From a virus (taxonomy: Duplodnaviria; Heunggongvirae; Uroviricota; Caudoviricetes): a stretch of DNA of 38,344 nt. Both the position numbers and the translations under genes were made by a program. Below, piece by piece: positions 7,485-37,295 of the stretch (the stretch's first letter is position 1; each line of letters starts with the position of its first letter). The DNA lies in IMG/VR virus record IMGVR_UViG_2740892016_000005; one strand, written 5' to 3'. The notes beneath the pieces are model-generated. The model was not told where the DNA came from and searched no databases. It worked only from the letters and a program-made list of their open reading frames with translations.

Positions 7485-7606
7485 GTACCTGTAAACCTGG
7501 TGCAGTACGGTAAACACGCTGGTGGTCGTGAATACTGACTTTTTATCTTGCTGGCTTTTTAGACAAGAGTTATTGGTATGTCATGTTAACCAGAAGGAAA
7601 AAAGAC

Positions 7607-7801
7607 ATGCTAAAACAGCAAGATATGACAGAAACGGCGAAAGTTGTTTTTAATGAATTAAGCATCGAACCGGCAACAGTCGGGGAGATTGCACAAAACA
7701 CATATCTTTCACGCGAACGCTGTCAGTTAATACTGACCCAGTTGGTTATGGCGGGGCTGGCAGATTACCAGTTCGGCTGTTACAGACGCCTTCAGCAATG
7801 A
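7607..7801 (+). CDS. Small hypothetical protein, possibly winged-helix
   Basis: ORF 7583..7801 trimmed to ATG 7607 (RBS aagga); 64 aa; no motif firmly recognised. Confidence 0.4.
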   Translation: MLKQQDMTETAKVVFNELSIEPATVGEIAQNTYLSRERCQLILTQLVMAGLADYQFGCYRRLQQ

Positions 7802-7950
7802 AGGACTTTTAATTTGTGAAAATGGGCGGCTGGTGGGTGTTGGTAGCACCTGCCAGCCATTCGCTCATGCTTACTGGTCACAAGCGAACCACGGCCCACT
7901 GCTTTAGCGCAAAAGCAGAGTGAGCCTACCAGAGTTACGCTTACTGATCC

Positions 7951-28900: not shown

Positions 28901-29379
28901 ATAATGTCACGATTAACCAGAACTGTCGGATTCTGGGAAAACTGTCTGCCAACCAGATTGAAGGTGATATTGTCAAAACGGTGGGAAAAGCCTTTCCGAG
29001 AAATGGCAGTTATGCCAGCGGTACAATAACGGTCACTGTGTACGATGACCAGGCTTTTGACCGTCAGATAGTAATCCCACCCGTTCTGTTTCGCGGTGGT
29101 AAGCATGAAAACTTCAACAGCAACAACCAACAGTCATACTGGTATTCAACCTGTAAGCTGCAGGTGCTGAAGAACGGACAGGAAATCTTTCAGCAACCCG
29201 CGACGGATGTCAGCAGGGTATTTTCATCCGTCATTGATATGCCTGCCGGACACGGTCATGTCACCCTGACTTTCAATGTTTCTTCATATGGTGCTAATAA
29301 CTGGACGCCAACGACCAGTATCAGCGACCTTCTTGTTGTCGTGATGAAGAAATCAACAGCCGGTATCAGTATCAGTTGA
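25981..29379 (+). CDS. J: Tail tip / host specificity protein J
   Basis: 1132 aa; lambda gpJ-like over most of its length; C-terminal ~150 aa diverge from lambda J as I recall it. Confidence 0.95.
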
Positions 29380-29446
29380 ATTTTATAACCCCAATACGGG
29401 CACCAGAAATGGTGCCTTTTTTATTGCAGAAAAGCGAGAGGTAATT

Positions 29447-30046
29447 ATGCGTAAATTATGTGCTGTTATTCTGTCTGCAGTAGTCTGGCTGGTCGCCGCT
29501 GGTACGCCAGCGAGTGCAGCAGAGCATCAGTCCACACTAAGCGGCGGGTATCTTCAGTCCCATACTGATATGCCCGGCAACGATGACCTGAAGGGCATTA
29601 ACGTGAAATACCGTTATGAATTTACGGACACGCTGGGGCTGGTGACGTCATTCAGTTATGCCAATGCCAAAGATGAGCAAAAAACGCATTACAGCGATAC
29701 CCGCTGGCATGAAGATTCAGTGCGTAACCGCTGGTTCAGCATGATGGCGGGGCCATCTGTACGCGTGAATGAATGGTTCAGTGCTTATGCGATGGCGGGT
29801 ATGGCTTACAGCCGTGTGTCGACCTTCTCCGGGGATTATCTCCGCGTAACTGACAACAAGGGGAAAACGCACGATGTGCTGACCGGAAGTGATGACGGTC
29901 GCCACAGCAACACGTCTCTGGCGTGGGGGGCTGGCGTGCAGTTTAACCCGACCGAATCCGTGGCCATTGACCTTGCTTATGAAGGTTCCGGCAGTGGCGG
30001 CTGGCGCACTGACGGGTTCATCGTGGGTGTTGGTTATAAATTCTGA
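29447..30046 (+). CDS. lom: Lom/Ail-family outer-membrane beta-barrel protein
   Basis: 199 aa; signal peptide and C-terminal GYKF; matches lambda Lom. Confidence 0.9.
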   Translation: MRKLCAVILSAVVWLVAAGTPASAAEHQSTLSGGYLQSHTDMPGNDDLKGINVKYRYEFTDTLGLVTSFSYANAKDEQKTHYSDTRWHEDSVRNRWFSMMAGPSVRVNEWFSAYAMAGMAYSRVSTFSGDYLRVTDNKGKTHDVLTGSDDGRHSNTSLAWGAGVQFNPTESVAIDLAYEGSGSGGWRTDGFIVGVGYKF

Positions 30047-30073
30047 TTAGCCAGGTAACACAGTGTTATGACG

Positions 30074-30099
30074 GCCCGCCGGTTCAGGCGGGCTTTTTT
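30074..30099 (+). terminator. Intrinsic terminator after lom
   Basis: GCCCGCC-ggttca-GGCGGGC followed by TTTTTT. Confidence 0.6.
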
Positions 30100-30110
30100 G
30101 TGGAGTGGAT

Positions 30111-32468
30111 ATGGCAGCAGTAAAAATCTCAGGTGTGCTGAAAGATGGTGCGGGAAAACCAATACAGAACTGCACTATTCAACTGAAGGCAAAGCGTAAC
30201 AGCACTACGGTACTGGTCAACACGGTGGCCTCTGAAAATCCGGATGAAGCCGGGCGTTACAGCATGGATGTTGAGTATGGCCAGTACAGCGTCACCCTGC
30301 TGGTTGAAGGTTTTCCGCCTTCACATGCCGGGACCATTACCGTCTATGAAGGTTCCAGACCAGGTACGCTGAATGATTTTCTCGGTGCCATGACGGAAGA
30401 GGATGTCATGCCGGAGGCATTGCGCCGTTTTGAGGAAATGGTGGAAGAAGCGGCACGCAACGCCGAAGCCGCCTCTCAGAGCGCAGCGGCGGCAAAGAAA
30501 TCCGAAACTGCAGCGGCATCATCGAAGAACGCGGCGAAAAGCTCAGAAACGAATGCAGCTAACAGCGCCCAGGCGGCAGCGGCCTCGCAGACTGCATCGG
30601 CAAACTCCGCGACAGCAGCCAAAAAATCAGAAACCAACGCGAAAAATAGCGAGACAGCCGCAAAGACGAGCGAAACCAACGCAAAGTCCAGCCAGACGGC
30701 AGCGAAGACCAGCGAAACGAATGCCAAAGCCAGTGAAACTGCGGCGAAAAATAGCCAGAATGCAGCAGCCGAAAGCGAGAGCGCGGCAGCCGGTTCTGCG
30801 ACTGCAGCAGCTGGATCAGCAACTGCTGCGGCTAACAGCCAGAAAGCAGCGAAGACGAGCGAAACTAACGCAAAGTCCAGCCAGACGGCAGCGAAGACCA
30901 GCGAAACGAATGCCAAAGCCAGCGAAACTGCGGCGAAAAACAGCCAGGATGCAGCAGCCCAAAGCGAGAGTGCCGCAGCTGGTTCTGCAACAGCGGCAGC
31001 TAATAGCCAAAAAGCTGCAAAAACCAGTGAAACTAACGCAAAGACGAGTGAAACAAAAGCAGCAGCCAGCGAGACAGAAGCAACGTCAGCCGCAACAAGA
31101 GCAGAGAATGCAGCCCGGATTGCAGAAGATGCCGCTGATCCTGCTTCTGTCCCTCCGCTTCCTGATATCTGGCTACCCTTGAATGATTCTCTGGAAGCGA
31201 TAACAGGGTATGCCCCGGGCTATAAAACAATAACCATCGGCAGTGATGAAATAACAATGCCTGTTAATGGCATATGCCAATTTAGCCGGGCTTCATCTGC
31301 AACGTATATTGATAAGTCCGGGCATATTACCGTGGCAGGGAATAACGTTCCTCGTTTTGAAAAATATGGTTTGCTGATAGAGAATCAGCGAACAAACATG
31401 TTCGTAAATAGTTTTAATCCTGATGCGTGGAATAAAAGCGGTGGTATATCTGTAACATCATCAACAGATGAATTTGAGTTTAAATATGGACGTTTCACAG
31501 TAGGAAGTGAGATAGCAGGAACGACAACAGGGAGAAATATATGCACAGTTGCTGGTAATAAAGGCATAGATGTGACTGGCGATGATCAGTACAGTAAAGG
31601 TCCGTATGTTACCGCGTCGTTCAGGGTAAGAAGTGATCTCAATGTTCGCGCACGTATCCGTTTTGAACGGTATAACTCGGAAGGATACACTTTCCTTTGT
31701 GACGCCTATTTGTCATTACAGACTCATGAACTACAAATTACGGGTGGTAATGCCCAGCTATTAACAGCAAACTTTGAAATCGACCCTGGTAGTGGATGGA
31801 TATATTTTCAGGCAACACTGAAATGTCTGCCAGAATGGGGAATGGTTGGTACGCAGCTGCAAATTGCAGCCGACAGAGCAGTGGGGGCTTTTGCAACAGG
31901 TGACTGGATAGAAGTAACCACCCCGCAATTCGAGTATGGTGCTTGTGCAACTTCCTTTATCATAACGACAACAGAGCCAGCGACTCGTGCATCAGATTTA
32001 TGTAAATTTCCGCTGATGAAAAATATGTATACCATGCCTTTTACGTTCATGGTGGAAGTCCATAAAAACTGGTTTATTTCTCATAATGCTGCACCGCGTG
32101 TCATTGATTCAGAAAATCACCAGTCCGGAGGCCCATTTATTATGGGGTTTGGTTCTTCTGGAACTATCAGTCAGGATGGTTATTCGTATTGCGATATAGG
32201 CGGGGCTAACCGGCGTGTATATGAGTCATGCGGAGTAAGAGATCTCGTTATGGGATTCAGGGTTAAGGCTGACGGCATGACATGCTCATTTGCAAATAAG
32301 CATATAAGCACAGAAACAAAAACAGTATGGAAATATATTCGTGAAGCTGCCGTGATTCGTATTGGGGGGCAAACGACGACAGGATTGCGACACCTTAATG
32401 GTCATATAAAAAATCTCCGTTTCTGGAACAGAGCATTGTCAGATACGCAGCTTAAGGAATACGTATAA
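30111..32468 (+). CDS. stf: Side tail fibre protein (Stf-like) with repetitive shaft and divergent distal domain
   Basis: ORF 30105..32468 trimmed to ATG 30111 (RBS ggag). N-terminus lambda Stf-like (MAAVKISGVLKDGAGKPIQNCTIQLKAKRNSTTV...); Ala/Ser/Thr-rich repeats; C-terminal part AT-rich and not lambda-like. Confidence 0.85.
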   Translation: MAAVKISGVLKDGAGKPIQNCTIQLKAKRNSTTVLVNTVASENPDEAGRYSMDVEYGQYSVTLLVEGFPPSHAGTITVYEGSRPGTLNDFLGAMTEEDVMPEALRRFEEMVEEAARNAEAASQSAAAAKKSETAAASSKNAAKSSETNAANSAQAAAASQTASANSATAAKKSETNAKNSETAAKTSETNAKSSQTAAKTSETNAKASETAAKNSQNAAAESESAAAGSATAAAGSATAAANSQKAAKTSETNAKSSQTAAKTSETNAKASETAAKNSQDAAAQSESAAAGSATAAANSQKAAKTSETNAKTSETKAAASETEATSAATRAENAARIAEDAADPASVPPLPDIWLPLNDSLEAITGYAPGYKTITIGSDEITMPVNGICQFSRASSATYIDKSGHITVAGNNVPRFEKYGLLIENQRTNMFVNSFNPDAWNKSGGISVTSSTDEFEFKYGRFTVGSEIAGTTTGRNICTVAGNKGIDVTGDDQYSKGPYVTASFRVRSDLNVRARIRFERYNSEGYTFLCDAYLSLQTHELQITGGNAQLLTANFEIDPGSGWIYFQATLKCLPEWGMVGTQLQIAADRAVGAFATGDWIEVTTPQFEYGACATSFIITTTEPATRASDLCKFPLMKNMYTMPFTFMVEVHKNWFISHNAAPRVIDSENHQSGGPFIMGFGSSGTISQDGYSYCDIGGANRRVYESCGVRDLVMGFRVKADGMTCSFANKHISTETKTVWKYIREAAVIRIGGQTTTGLRHLNGHIKNLRFWNRALSDTQLKEYV
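30490..31090 (+). repeat. Tandem coding repeats within stf
   Basis: Short KTSETNAK-type units plus two long near-identical copies of ~188 bp (about 30660-30847 and 30848-31015). Confidence 0.7.
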
Positions 32469-32737
32469 TGCGGGATATAACATTACGGTTCGATAACAGA
32501 GAACAGTTTAACGCAATTGTATATGACAGTGGCCTGTTCAGTCTTGAAGAAGAAAACGGGGTTCTTGTTGATGTTATTGGCTGCATTATCGATTACGAGG
32601 AGCCAGAAAACGAAAGATGTACAGGCATTGATCGCGGTGGTTTTTTCGTAAACATGAGGATTGTTGATAGCAGTAAAAACATATCTTCTTTAATGCCTTT
32701 CATTACGACAGATCAGCATGTAAGGACATGGGCTTAA
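32468..32737 (+). CDS. Hypothetical protein (tail-fibre accessory?)
   Basis: 89 aa; ATG overlaps the stf stop (TAATG); no motif recognised. Confidence 0.45.
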   Translation: MRDITLRFDNREQFNAIVYDSGLFSLEEENGVLVDVIGCIIDYEEPENERCTGIDRGGFFVNMRIVDSSKNISSLMPFITTDQHVRTWA

Positions 32738-32749
32738 TGGAGTAAGACA

Positions 32750-33433
32750 ATGGTTACAAAAACAGTAATTCCGGGAGACATCACCACGCTAAAGGGAGAT
32801 ATTTCCTCAATTAACGGAAAAGTATCAACGCTTCAGACTGAGATGACCAGTGCAAAGCAGGATATCAGCTCCAGATACACAAAAACTGAAGTTGATAATA
32901 AGCTGAAAAACAAAGTGGAAGTGAACGATCTGGAAAGTGGTCGTTATGGCGGAGATTTTTATCCACTGACAGGTCGTGAAGCGTTTTATTTATGGAATTT
33001 GGCCACGACTACAGCGGCGGCAAACCTTTATCTTAATCCTGACCCTGCAATTTCGTCTGTGCTGCGGTCAACATCGTCTATCCGCTATAAACATTCAGTA
33101 GAGACGATAGATTCAGAGCACGCCGATCTCATTTTCAAGATGCGCCCTGTGTGGTACAGGTCGCAATGCGAAAATGACAGGCGCGATTGGGGATTCTATG
33201 GATTGATTGCCGAGGAAGTAGGAGAAATTGCCCCCCAGTTTGTACACTGGCGATCAGCTAACGAAGATGATGCACCGGAAGCTATTTCCAGCAATGGCCT
33301 TGTTGCCGAAGGTGTAATGTACGAACGTCTGGTTGTTCCACTGATTCACCATATCCAGAAACTGACTGAAAGAGTTGATGAACTTGAGTCAGAATTGAAG
33401 TTGTTATCAACTTCCCGAAGCGATATCGGATAA
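32750..33433 (+). CDS. Short tail fibre/spike-like protein with C-terminal S74-type intramolecular chaperone domain
   Basis: 227 aa; C-terminal ~120 aa (SSIRYKHSVETID...DLIFKMRPVWY...GFYGLIAEEVGEIAPQFV...VMYERLVVPLIHHIQKLTERVDELESELKLL) follow the pattern of endosialidase-type autoproteolytic chaperone domains. Confidence 0.7.
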   Translation: MVTKTVIPGDITTLKGDISSINGKVSTLQTEMTSAKQDISSRYTKTEVDNKLKNKVEVNDLESGRYGGDFYPLTGREAFYLWNLATTTAAANLYLNPDPAISSVLRSTSSIRYKHSVETIDSEHADLIFKMRPVWYRSQCENDRRDWGFYGLIAEEVGEIAPQFVHWRSANEDDAPEAISSNGLVAEGVMYERLVVPLIHHIQKLTERVDELESELKLLSTSRSDIG

Positions 33434-33443
33434 AGGAGGAGTA

Positions 33444-33731
33444 ATGGATATAACACCTTTTCTTCATGCGCTTTGTGCTGTGGCTGCGCAGGTACTGATT
33501 GGTCTTTTTACCGGAAACTGGGCTTACGGGGCGATAGCCGGTTGTACATTCTTCATTGCGCGGGAACACACCCAGGCAGAATATCGCTGGATTGAAATGT
33601 TCGGGCATGGCAAGCGGATTAACATGCCGTGGTGGGGCGGTTTTGATCCACGTGCATGGGATGTGGCAAGTCTGATGGATTTTGCGGTGCCGGCGGTGGC
33701 GTGTCTGCTGGTCTGGCTGTTTATCCGTTAA
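33444..33731 (+). CDS. Small integral membrane protein, function unknown
   Basis: 95 aa; strong RBS aaggagg; predicted hydrophobic segments at both ends (LCAVAAQVLIGLF, AVPAVACLLVWLFI). Confidence 0.5.
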   Translation: MDITPFLHALCAVAAQVLIGLFTGNWAYGAIAGCTFFIAREHTQAEYRWIEMFGHGKRINMPWWGGFDPRAWDVASLMDFAVPAVACLLVWLFIR

Positions 33732-34096
33732 ACATAAAAAGCCGCAGCAACTTGTCGTGGCAGAATACTGCGGCTGGCTGGTGAACTTCCGATAATTTGA
33801 TTATTAAATAATTTCCAGCTGTTATTGATTTTACGTATTTTTTGTATGGGAGAATTTGCACCTCCTCCCATCGACCATCTATGACTGTATGCCACTATCT
33901 ATAGGACTACTATGTGCCAGAAACGGATATTACTGTGTATGGTTAATTCTGCCTGTCAAATAACTTACGTTCATCAAATAATCGAAATTATGACTTAGCT
34001 CAACAATTAGGTTTAGCATGGGGTCATATGACTAGAGTGCAGCGACTTGCTGCAATAATTTAATAAGAATAAAAAATGCCAACTTATGCTAATTAA

Positions 34097-34302
34097 GGCG
34101 GTAATTCGGGAATAGTGTTTTATGAGATTACTCCCGATGTTATCACAGTACAGTTTAAAGATGGATGGAAATACGTTACGATTCTACAAAACTGGGTGCT
34201 TCAACGGTCTCTAAGATGAAAGAGTTAGCCCAGGATGGGCATGGACTAAATAGTTTTATTAGTAGTGTGGTTAAGAAAAATTTCTCACGTAAATACCTTT
34301 AA
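34097..34302 (+). pseudogene. Degraded KTSC-domain-like gene remnant (no start codon, apparent frameshift)
   Basis: Frame A gives GGNSGIVFYEITPDVITVQFKDGWKYVT, resembling the KTSC core (YD...L.V.F.nG..Y.Y). A different frame continues ...ASTVSKMKELAQDGHGLNSFISSVVKKNF. No ATG in frame after the upstream stop. Confidence 0.25.
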
Positions 34303-34532
34303 TTTTAATTGAGGGTGGTAAGGACTATCACCCTCATAATTCTTCACCATTCAATCAAGAGCAATTCAAGGCGATTTGTTCTTATTGTACATGGTCAGTT
34401 AGTTAGCACTTCGTAATTTATTGAATAGAAGACTTTTGGAACAGCATCTGCACTCGTGCTTATCGCCCGGCAGACTTAGCCAGAATAGTCTCGAGCATTT
34501 CTGGTTCGTTGCCTTTAGCTGTATCAATATTT

Positions 34533-36311
34533 TCACCCCCTAGATCTTGCTGAAAGCTCATCTTTATAAGCCATTCTTGGCGTGTAAAAATTATGGAATG
34601 CCTTACCTATTGCACCATTGAAAAGCTTAAGCAATGGTTTATTGCTCCCTGCGTTTAAAATATTCCTCATTGCTATACCAGGGTATGGATCTATGTAATA
34701 TATTTGTTTGATCCCTAATTGATACGCTTTTTTAGAACATAATTCACAAGGGCTTGCTGTTGTGAACAAAAAACCATTCTGTATACCAACGCCACCATAC
34801 TTAGATATTTGTAAGAAAGCATTCTCTTCAGCATGAAGTGATCTTGTAAAAACTTGATTAGCGTTAGATTTTATTTTGTCAATAATAGCAAACTCATCAT
34901 CATTTAACTTATGTTCGACCCGTAGATCTTCTTTGTATTTATCATCAAGGATATTATTCCATTCTGTTTTAAAACAAAATGGAGCTCTCATTCCTTTATT
35001 TTTAACATCTAAAAAAATAATCTTAGTGCTATCTATTTTTCGAATGAAACTATTTTCGTTCTTTTCGAATTCAGAGTAAGCAATATCATCAATCCCCTCA
35101 GACAAATCAAACCTATCCCTTAAAGAGCAAGGAACTTGACCACTTGGTACATCATTCCAACCAATAGACTTAATTGAAAATGAACTATCAGATACTGCAG
35201 CGCCTACCTGCCTGGATATACAACCAGAGTTCAACTTAGCTGTATATGCTATCTGCATGCAACGTTCAACATTTGATGGAGTTATTATACCAGGACGCTT
35301 CATTAATGAAGTGAATTTAATTAATTGATTAGCCAATCCTGAGTACCGACAAACAACATTTTCCTCTTCCGGATTCTCAACATAGATGTCTGATATTTCT
35401 AAACAAGACTGTATATTCTGATATATATATGATGACTTCTCATCCAAAGATGATTTACGGTATTCTTTTGCATCAATATCTTTTATCTCAGCATCAGTTA
35501 AACCTTGTTCTCTAAGCCTTTGATGCCTGTAATGCTCTTCTGTAGAAACAGCCATTAAATAAAATGATGAGTATCTATCTTGGAAGTATGTTGCTTCGAA
35601 CGGATTTCTTATAGCATCAATAACTATATAAATAGGTTTCTTTTCTCCAGTTTTTGTGTTCTTTTCTTTTGCTAAGGTTCTTAATCTTTGAATTATATCA
35701 TTTATTTTTTTAGGAAGAAAAAAACCATGGAAATCATCACTAAATGAACTGTCATGGTACATCCCACTAGATCTATAATTATTACCTATAGCTTGATATA
35801 GCTTTATATAGTCAGCCTTGTTCTTAAATATGGATTTAATTTGTGTATTCGCTTTTATTAGATATTCATTTATGAATTTTATCTTATCATCTATATCATG
35901 ATCAGAGCTTTCATCTTTAGCTTTAATTTCTTTTAGTATAGATTCAAGATCATTAACTGTTGACTCTAGGACTCTTTGGTCATTACCTAACTCCGTCACT
36001 TCCCGAATAAATTTATTCAGCTTACCATCAAAGTCCTTTGATAAACACAATGTCAGTATGGAACTTGCTTGTATTTTTATAAATGGAACCCATGACACGG
36101 AAAAATATTTAAATAGAACCCGCTCTTTTCTTTCTTCATTCGACTTAGGGTAATCACCGTTAAATAGAGAATGCTTTATCTCACTTGATTCTGATGACAG
36201 TATATTAGAAACTGTTGAACAGCCTGACCCCGTCCTCCCTGTTAATCCTATAATTAGGAAATCATCATCTTCACTATATATTTTACTCAGTGCGTCATTA
36301 TAAAAACCCAT
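34533..36311 (-). CDS. P-loop NTPase / dCMP-deaminase fusion protein; AvcD/DCD-like candidate nucleotide-depletion defence
   Basis: 592 aa. N-terminal deviant P-loop GLTGRTGSGCST; C-terminal deaminase motifs ERCMQIAYTAKLNSGCISRQVGAAV, HAEENA and PCELC (zinc ligands). AT-rich; RBS ggag; own promoter-like -10. Confidence 0.9.
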   Translation of the reverse strand: MGFYNDALSKIYSEDDDFLIIGLTGRTGSGCSTVSNILSSESSEIKHSLFNGDYPKSNEERKERVLFKYFSVSWVPFIKIQASSILTLCLSKDFDGKLNKFIREVTELGNDQRVLESTVNDLESILKEIKAKDESSDHDIDDKIKFINEYLIKANTQIKSIFKNKADYIKLYQAIGNNYRSSGMYHDSSFSDDFHGFFLPKKINDIIQRLRTLAKEKNTKTGEKKPIYIVIDAIRNPFEATYFQDRYSSFYLMAVSTEEHYRHQRLREQGLTDAEIKDIDAKEYRKSSLDEKSSYIYQNIQSCLEISDIYVENPEEENVVCRYSGLANQLIKFTSLMKRPGIITPSNVERCMQIAYTAKLNSGCISRQVGAAVSDSSFSIKSIGWNDVPSGQVPCSLRDRFDLSEGIDDIAYSEFEKNENSFIRKIDSTKIIFLDVKNKGMRAPFCFKTEWNNILDDKYKEDLRVEHKLNDDEFAIIDKIKSNANQVFTRSLHAEENAFLQISKYGGVGIQNGFLFTTASPCELCSKKAYQLGIKQIYYIDPYPGIAMRNILNAGSNKPLLKLFNGAIGKAFHNFYTPRMAYKDELSARSRG

Positions 36312-36361
36312 AAAATCTCCAGTAATAATGAAGGATTTAAAATAAAAAGCTCTACTTAGAT

Positions 36362-36400
36362 GTTTTTATTATATAAAATACATCTCCATTCTTCATTAGT
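36362..36400 (-). promoter_or_regulatory. Promoter-like region for the deaminase gene
   Basis: Consensus -10 TATAAT on the minus strand (36369-36374) about 55 nt upstream of the ATG; -35 poor. Confidence 0.3.
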
Positions 36401-37295
36401 ATATTACGAATCTGCAACTTTCACACACGATTTTTCATCGGATGTACTAATATTAGCAAGCGGAGCTTTCTTTTCCCAGACAGCTTCCATCCGCTGCATC
36501 GCGGCAACCCGTGCGTAGCCGATGTCGATTAAGTAATACATCACCCAGAGATACTCCCGTAACCTAAATCATCTTCAAAACGATATATATCTCTGACTTT
36601 CACGTATAGTACGACATCTCGCGGCACATGGCATACACGGACTCTTAAGCCACCTTAATCGCCTGATTCAGGGAATTCACTGCAGGCTTCTACTGCTCCA
36701 GCCCAGTTTGTTTTAACTCCTGCTCAACCTGAGTCAAAGCTGTACTAACTGATTTTTTGTCTGTCTCAGTCATGTTGCCGGAAGCACTGTCCAGCTCACG
36801 GATAACACCACTGGGCTTGTATTTGAAATCGCGTGACTATGAGCATTACGATCTTGATCCGCTGCACTGGAAGGATTATTACGACGTGTGGTTAACCCAG
36901 CAAAGGGCATTCTGAGGACTTGTGACGCAATCTACTGTCTTACCGTCTGGTGGAGATATTCCTTGCGATGCGCAAGAAGTTTAAAGGTGTCATTCCACCC
37001 AATAAATTCTGACCTGTTTCCAATTGATTAACACACTGTAAAGCGAGTAATGCCCCACGTCTGTATCACAATTGCTAACTTCCGTTTCTCGCACAGAGAG
37101 GACCTTCAGTTCAGTCCGATGGTCTGCTCTGTGCCAAAAGCGGACGTTAAGCTTACCAACTCATATTTTAAGGTCATAGGTGCGTATAAACGAAGTGCCG
37201 CGCTTAGGAGTAGTGAATTTACAGACTTACAAAATCATTTATTTCAGGCCAATTTATGTAATGGCATAATCAGGTTGGTGAAAGAGAGGGCGGAA

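Follow-up and report, generated by a model that had tools for sequence, protein, structure and literature searches.

The distal part of a lambda-type side tail fibre is an exchangeable module with two different jelly rolls, carried in an AT-rich cassette

The side tail fibre gene stf of the virus record IMGVR_UViG_2740892016_000005 (Duplodnaviria; Heunggongvirae; Uroviricota; Caudoviricetes), whose full stretch of 38,344 nucleotides (nt) is referred to below as the window, joins a lambda-like N-terminus to a distal part that bears no likeness to the lambda protein. The distal 439 amino acids (aa 349-787) consist of three parts, a conserved neck, a jelly roll resembling carbohydrate-binding modules (CBMs), and a linker followed by a jelly roll of the LamG/concanavalin A (ConA)-like type. 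Their coding sequence belongs to an exchanged AT-rich block of about 2.2 kb (~31200-33433), which reaches about 1 kb past the stf stop and includes two further genes, orf89 and orf227. We consider it likely that the distal module serves as a polysaccharide-binding tip of lectin type within an AT-rich cassette that moves between phage families, with the orf89 product as assembly partner and the orf227 product as an optional short branch. Such shuffling of tail-fibre modules is real but an ordinary case, mosaicism being already well known, and the current view of tail-fibre mosaicism is left unchanged by the result.

The gene occupies the lambda-type position in the order J-lom-stf. Residues are numbered throughout on the 787-residue open reading frame (ORF) with its program-derived GTG start; the downstream ATG at 30111 agrees with the MAVKISG start of lambda. 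The gene and its parts are:

30105..32468, plus strand: stf, side tail fibre gene, 787 aa from GTG 30105 or 785 aa from ATG 30111 (RefSeq annotation)
30117..30506, plus strand: lambda-like N-terminal virion-attachment domain, aa 5-134 (Pfam PF08400, phage_tail_N)
30465..31148, plus strand: Ala/Ser/Thr-rich repeat shaft, aa 121-348
31149..31409, plus strand: conserved neck of the distal module, aa 349-435, reading PLPDIWLPLNDSL...GLLIENQRTN
31410..31943, plus strand: jelly roll 1, a CBM-like beta-sandwich of the gene transfer agent (GTA) head-spike-fibre family, variable in sequence, aa ~436-613
31944..32465, plus strand: conserved linker (TPQFEYG..TRASD) and C-terminal LamG/ConA-like jelly roll, aa ~614-787

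A first-pass annotation, made by a model from the sequence alone, had proposed for 31190-32468 an AT-rich, non-lambda distal domain with a lectin-like end, acquired by recombinational swap. The composition break on which it relied is plain. Near 31200 the sliding profile of guanine-plus-cytosine (GC) content falls from ~0.56 to 0.39-0.44, and a two-segment maximum-likelihood fit to stf plus the two following ORFs places the change point at 31221 (log-likelihood gain 21.8), 31 nt from the start that had been claimed; GC content within stf is 0.549 before this point and 0.428 after it. GC content at third codon positions (GC3) declines along the gene, from 0.525 in aa 1-120 through 0.482 in the shaft to 0.359 in the distal 439 codons; on the two sides of the break it is 0.50 and 0.36. 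Since GC3 drops too, amino-acid content is not a sufficient cause of the drop in GC. The low-GC block goes past 32468, as orf89 (0.396) and orf227 (0.446) still belong to it, and only orf95, starting at 33444, is back at 0.528. The homologous module is AT-rich in all phage backgrounds compared, with GC of 0.40-0.45 and GC3 of 0.28-0.39.

DNA likeness to lambda covers J up to 28913 and then the end of lom together with stf up to 30463 (Stf aa 120; 82% identical), and there is none after. The N-terminal domain scores 222.4 bits against PF08400 and so passes the gathering threshold of 26.6, and in a profile search it is matched by PDB chain 9e7m_Ta, named just 'Tail fiber protein' (E = 7e-16). 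The protein alignment with lambda orf-401 spans Stf aa 5 to ~290, its shaft portion consisting of low-complexity Ala/Ser/Thr repeats; past about residue 290 there is no likeness to lambda Stf, and BLASTP of lambda orf-314, the C-terminal half, against Stf gave a best E value of 1.2 and hence no match. The claim that the distal part ceases to resemble lambda is thereby borne out, the likeness at the DNA level ending earlier still. A tfa-like ORF was not found downstream of stf in the ORF list or by Pfam, PHROG or RefSeq annotation. Within the shaft, Tandem Repeats Finder reports a tandem duplication at 30648-31061 with a period of 189 nt (63 aa), 1.9-2.1 copies and 83-90% matches; the 189-nt duplication is itself composed of 21- and 42-nt sub-repeats. 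The shaft repeats are probably sites of recombination and of length variation.

What takes the place of the lambda tip was delimited by profile searches and structure prediction. Pfam run on the whole of Stf finds phage_tail_N only (aa 5-134). The NCBIfam model NF048003 (GTA_spike_fiber) matches Stf aa 424-629 with 48.2 bits against a cutoff of 36 and over profile positions 1-181 of 182, and a profile built from the homologues matches Rcc01080, the RcGTA head-spike fibre, at the sequence level in PDB with E = 2e-11. The corresponding entry, 6TB9, was dropped as structural evidence, since just residues 2-10 of the chain are modelled in it (PMC7296036). For the C-terminal domain, the last 172 aa searched alone against Pfam match Laminin_G_3 (PF13385) with E = 4e-4 and 21.0 bits, the match covering the last ~50 residues of Stf and profile positions 102-150 of 151. 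At E <= 0.01 Laminin_G_3 is found in 29 of 35 homologous C-terminal domains (best 4.3e-13), and a profile of this domain compared with PDB retrieves botulinum-toxin Hc-N, pentraxins and the pentraxin domain of an adhesion GPCR. The lectin-like end that the first-pass annotation had proposed is therefore present, and the string it quoted does occur there, though the ORF, which closes with ...IKNLRFWNRALSDTQLKEYV*, runs one residue further, and the distal region comprises a neck and two different jelly rolls and not a single LamG domain. An origin of the two jelly rolls by tandem duplication was considered and rejected (hhalign probability 0.1%).

The final AlphaFold model was computed from an alignment of 54 homologues with identity down to ~26%, drawn from an exhaustive representative search that returned 2,087 clusters at E <= 1e-3, and reached a pLDDT (predicted local distance difference test) score of 89.3 and a predicted template modelling (pTM) score of 0.86. 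A first model, based on 32 homologues of ~50% identity, had been discarded (pLDDT 57, C-terminal domain unusable), and a word-indexed search with the C-terminal 173 aa returned 12 proteins only, mainly fragments. In the final model the curved two-sheet beta-sandwich (jelly-roll) fold of the PF13385/ConA-like superfamily is found. The best structural matches of the module are AbnA domain 4, botulinum neurotoxin (BoNT) Hc-N, CBM40, CBM4/22 and pentraxins. Foldseek against viral models detects the whole module in tail fibres of the phages rolling, EdH4 and NBEco002 (template modelling score 0.87-0.92), and also in numerous uncultured-virus proteins annotated as ConA-like. Across the 54 homologues, the neck, linker and last strands are well conserved and the two jelly-roll cores poorly so, a pattern that fits the expectation for specificity-determining surfaces. 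The neck, in which the GC change point falls, is the best-conserved part of the module, and for many of the 2,087 clusters of related proteins the neck stretch is all that is shared; the variable loops of jelly roll 1 fall within aa 449-608, and the LamG-like part varies at its centre (aa 669-748) and is conserved in its final strands. The GC plot, profile searches and structure prediction that had been proposed as checks thus bring out a break, distinct domains and jelly-roll folds, and neither a uniform composition nor a lambda-like distal domain was seen.

Evidence for exchange comes from the distribution of the parts among phages. Searched with tblastn against phage genomes, Stf falls into two pieces. 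Residues 5-114 find lambdoid and Stx phages (85-92%). With aa 349-787 the matches, at 33-52% identity, are lateral tail fibres of the T5-like phages IrisVonRoten, Es2, phiAPCEc03 and phA11, of the T1-like Drexlerviridae Tuinin, rolling and Phunderstruck and of the rV5-like myoviruses EdH4 and JLBYU08, and also VogelGryff (58 kb) and the other lambdoid phages ev243 and Lambda_ev087. Identity of the N-terminal domain tracks phage type (88-98% for lambdoid phages, 22-34% for T5-, T1- and rV5-like ones), whereas that of the distal module (35-61%) is independent of it. For the LamG domain alone, identity is 61% to the myovirus EdH4 and 55% to the T5-like IrisVonRoten and just 42% to the lambdoid E. 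coli 405. When the region from lom to orf95 was used as query, 4,946 of 5,426 complete E. coli genomes gave some match, mostly to lom and the 5' end of stf up to ~30463 only; the distal module is present in only 141 of the 5,426. Comparison of alleles yields breakpoints at aa 120 (30463), aa 211 (30737) and aa 299 (31001), the last two within or at the end of the shaft repeats, and similarity returns at 33443, at the start of orf95, with 90-94% nucleotide identity in all lambdoid alleles compared. Exchange is shown by these breakpoints and by the sharing across families independently of composition. The recombinational swap first proposed for 31190-32468 accordingly stands, but its right limit was drawn too narrowly, as the block extends to ~33433.

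The remainder of the cassette and its right flank consist of:

32468..32737, plus strand: orf89, small protein of 89 aa (PHROG 1361, function unknown)
32750..33433, plus strand: orf227, short second fibre-like protein of 227 aa with a conserved, putatively docking N-terminus MVTKTVIPGDITTLK, a coiled-coil-like stretch and a C-terminal S74 intramolecular chaperone
33444..33731, plus strand: orf95, conserved right flank of the exchangeable cassette (PHROG 1443, function unknown), with hydrophobic N- and C-termini

The start of orf89 overlaps the stf stop (TAATG), and the two genes are translationally coupled. A homologue of orf89 lies directly 3' of the module in all eight loci examined, which include lambdoid, T5-, T1- and rV5-like phages. 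Searches for a family or fold gave a sub-threshold Pfam match to an unrelated family (13.8 bits), none in NCBIfam and a best PDB E value of 0.32; the product is probably an assembly factor or partner. The orf227 protein matches Pfam Peptidase_S74 with 26.9 bits (cutoff 22) and has the Ser-x4-Lys motif as S109/K114 (SIRYK; reference S-D-x-x-x-K). Its N-terminus follows the pattern M[VAT]TxTxIPxDIxxLK, which is kept in six of six second-fibre proteins with differing bodies and lengths from 224 to 580 aa. Homologues of 224-227 aa with 55-62% identity occur in many Drexlerviridae. Phage PhiR11_1 is 97.5% identical to the window over stf, orf89 and the first 44 nt of the second-fibre gene; its Stf is 99% identical, and from nt 44 to orf95 a different second-fibre gene has been swapped in, so that the fibre (7561-8601) has 346 aa instead. 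The same 346-aa type is found in E. coli 405 behind a different Stf module.

The most likely mechanism is the following. The lambda-type N-terminal domain (aa 1-120) would anchor Stf at the tail tip and the Ala/Ser/Thr-rich shaft would serve as a spacer, at the end of which the portable distal module would take the place of the lambda gp37-like tip and of the Tfa chaperone. The module would most likely bind surface polysaccharide, O-antigen or capsule, in a reversible and multivalent manner, concentrating virions on the cell before J contacts its outer-membrane protein. We infer a receptor-binding role for it from the lectin-type folds and the variable cores, together with the capsule binding of the RcGTA head-spike fibre and the description of Gp22 (see below). 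The N-terminal peptide of the orf227 product would probably dock on the Stf module as a short branch once the S74 chaperone has cleaved itself off, and the module may also serve as a branch point for a second fibre. The cassette would be exchanged by recombination, on the left within the conserved 5' part of stf or the shaft repeats and on the right in the conserved orf95.

Several observations weigh against this mechanism. The homology of jelly roll 1 is based on sequence and prediction and lacks a solved fold, given the few residues of Rcc01080 that are resolved, and the Laminin_G_3 score of Stf itself (21.0 bits) lies under the Pfam gathering threshold of 27.6. The AlphaFold model is that of a monomer; for the fibre on the virion we infer a trimer. 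Furthermore, a GC content of 0.43 is no outlier in so heterogeneous a window (z = -1.6 compared with other 1279-nt windows). The lambdoid alleles of ev243 and 23CRST044 are without a second-fibre gene, the ev243 type keeping the module and the small gene, and branching is therefore optional. Finally, the annotators of the BASEL collection name the short S74 protein 'putative lateral tail fiber chaperone' and not a fibre.

Three other explanations have to be weighed. The drop in GC could be merely a side effect of amino-acid content, with an ordinary globular domain standing beside a GC-rich Ala/Ser/Thr shaft and no horizontal exchange at all. GCN and ACN codons do raise the GC content of the shaft (0.563, while its GC3 is just 0.482), and the module stays inside the range of the window, as said. 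GC3 falls as well, however, the low-GC block covers three genes and ends exactly where homology between alleles returns (33443), and the module is AT-rich in each background compared; together with the breakpoints and the cross-family sharing, these identity patterns already contradict such an explanation, which is hardly tenable. Improbable to a somewhat lesser degree is that the module acts enzymatically, as a jelly-roll glycanase or lyase breaking down capsule or O-antigen, and is not a passive lectin. A catalytic family was not found in the Pfam or NCBIfam searches, the top structural matches listed above are all non-catalytic, and the near-invariant positions belong to the neck, the linker between the domains and the final LamG strands, with none in a jelly-roll cleft. 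The relative that has been studied, the RcGTA head-spike fibre, is moreover reported as a binder (PMC10218006).

More serious, yet in our estimate unlikely, is the view that the module works chiefly as a structural adaptor, or branch point, while the separate distal fibre, here orf227, holds the true receptor specificity, as has been proposed for Gp22/Gp24 and LtfA/LtfB (see below); it overlaps with the lectin-tip reading. This model exists in the literature (PMC11990801, PMC4728585), and it is consistent with the second-fibre N-terminal peptide being kept in six of six loci despite differing bodies and with the precise replacement of the second fibre after 44 nt in PhiR11_1. On the other hand, only ~108 aa of the orf227 product would be left once the S74 chaperone is cleaved off, ~48 of them separating the coiled coil from the cleavage site, which is too small for receptor-binding domains (RBDs) like those of Gp24; in fact orf227 is without the ~350 residues that in Gp24 bear RBD1 (Gp12-like) and RBD2 (T5-like). 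Alleles of the ev243 type have the module and orf89 and no second fibre, and the hypervariable cores of the jelly rolls fit ligand-binding surfaces better than a pure adaptor.

A more tentative idea extends both roles. Lambdoid E. coli prophages may have branched side fibres, in which the lectin module of Stf would be both glycan binder and socket for a swappable second fibre; the evidence makes this conceivable and not yet likely. The orf227 product would then be a minimal 'plug' or stub, or a detached chaperone acting in trans. We know of no experimental demonstration of a branched Stf in any lambda-like phage. If the idea were true, each virion would have three independently exchangeable specificity elements, namely the tip of J, the lectin module of Stf and the branch.

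Side-fibre tips set the O-antigen and capsule types that a temperate phage can reach, and in lambda particles engineered for targeted delivery it is these parts that are exchanged (PMC11338833). The present allele is a natural fusion of a lambda-type N-terminus and shaft with a lectin-type module that is also used by T5-, T1- and rV5-like phages, and its natural junctions at aa 120, ~211 and ~299 and in the neck are usable for such purposes. Near-identical Stf proteins occur in the cultured phages PhiR55_1 and PhiR11_1, so that the binding specificity is directly measurable.

Some further features of the locus deserve mention. PHROG 1419 covers Stf over its full length, and its architecture is therefore that of an established phage family. 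RefSeq labels near-identical copies of Stf either 'prophage tail fiber N-terminal domain-containing protein' or, misleadingly for a tail fibre, 'phage head spike fiber domain-containing protein'. On the opposite strand within stf there are nested ORFs, short ones only (55-80 aa); an Rfam scan of 29000-36500 gave zero matches, promoter-like sites stay below chance expectation and a convincing internal terminator was not found. Strong terminator-like hairpins with 8-bp GC-rich stems followed by T runs are located at 29398-29417 and 30073-30094, on both sides of lom, right after J and right before stf, which fits a moron-type insertion. The 95% DNA identity of J to lambda ends at 28913, at about aa 977 of 1132, leaving the last ~155 codons (28913-29379), and the C-terminal receptor-binding part of J is thus also non-lambda. 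This break is close to aa 964, the natural gpJ junction used in engineering (PMC11338833). The phage probably does not use LamB as receptor.

Past the tail-fibre genes, in a very AT-rich stretch (GC 0.33), the minus strand encodes at 34533-36311 a protein of 592 aa, listed as hypothetical in RefSeq, whose N-terminal region is P-loop/AAA-like and whose C-terminal domain is that of a cytidine/dCMP deaminase. It scores 424 bits as dCTPase in PADLOC and 370.8 bits as 'anti-phage dCTP deaminase' in NCBIfam, slightly below the cutoff of 400, and is probably a prophage-borne anti-phage dCTP deaminase.

How does the fibre compare with known systems? The closest is found in IrisVonRoten (Bas32), a Tequintavirus described with the completed BASEL collection (Humolli et al. 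2025; PMC11990801). From the end of its proximal fibre, Gp22, protrudes a 'galectin-like' C-terminal domain, possibly an extra RBD, to which the T-shaped distal fibre Gp24 attaches, and the phage overcomes the O16 O-antigen (PMC11990801). Over its C-terminal ~440 aa, Gp22 shares ~52% identity with Stf aa 349-787, with 60% in the neck, 44% in jelly roll 1 and 55% in the LamG domain, each aligned nearly in full; a homologous gene for ~90 aa (Gp23) comes next, like orf89 here, and is followed by a second fibre that starts with MVTKTVIPxDITxLK and has an S74 chaperone at its end. Gp22 differs by its T5-type N-terminus, which depends on LtfC and does not belong to phage_tail_N (34% identity over 38 residues), and the second fibre has 574 aa with two RBDs, whereas that of the window, with 227 aa, is nearly bodiless. 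Branched, L-shaped fibres had first been inferred for LtfA/LtfB of DT57C and DT571/2 (Golomidova et al. 2016; PMC4728585). The likeness lies in the concept, a proximal fibre fixed to the tail that bears a separate second fibre via a short conserved N-terminal segment, the fibres being directed at O-antigens; LtfA has another distal region. LtfA was rejected as closest relative because it ends in an S74 domain of its own (PMC4728585), and the IrisVonRoten type fits better. In the cryo-electron microscopy map of DT57C the N-terminal part of LtfA alone is resolved, and attachment of LtfB via LtfA was inferred indirectly (PMC10713586).

Homology to the RcGTA head-spike fibre Rcc01080/GhsB starts at the neck motif (R.S.ATY...PR...GLLIE..TN), takes in jelly roll 1 and reaches the TRA.D linker, where the profile match stops at residue 285. 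Rcc01080 differs as a single subunit of 325 aa that sits on capsid pentons and is attached by an N-terminal Leu-Gly repeat. Binding of this head-spike fibre to capsular polysaccharide has been demonstrated experimentally (PMC7296036, PMC10218006). With Stf/Tfa of lambda (Ur-lambda), finally, the fibre shares the position after J and lom, the N-terminal domain and the Ala/Ser/Thr-rich shaft; it differs in that the T4 gp37-like orf-314 half and Tfa are replaced by the module, orf89 and orf227. The modularity of Stf has already been exploited for engineering (PMC11338833).

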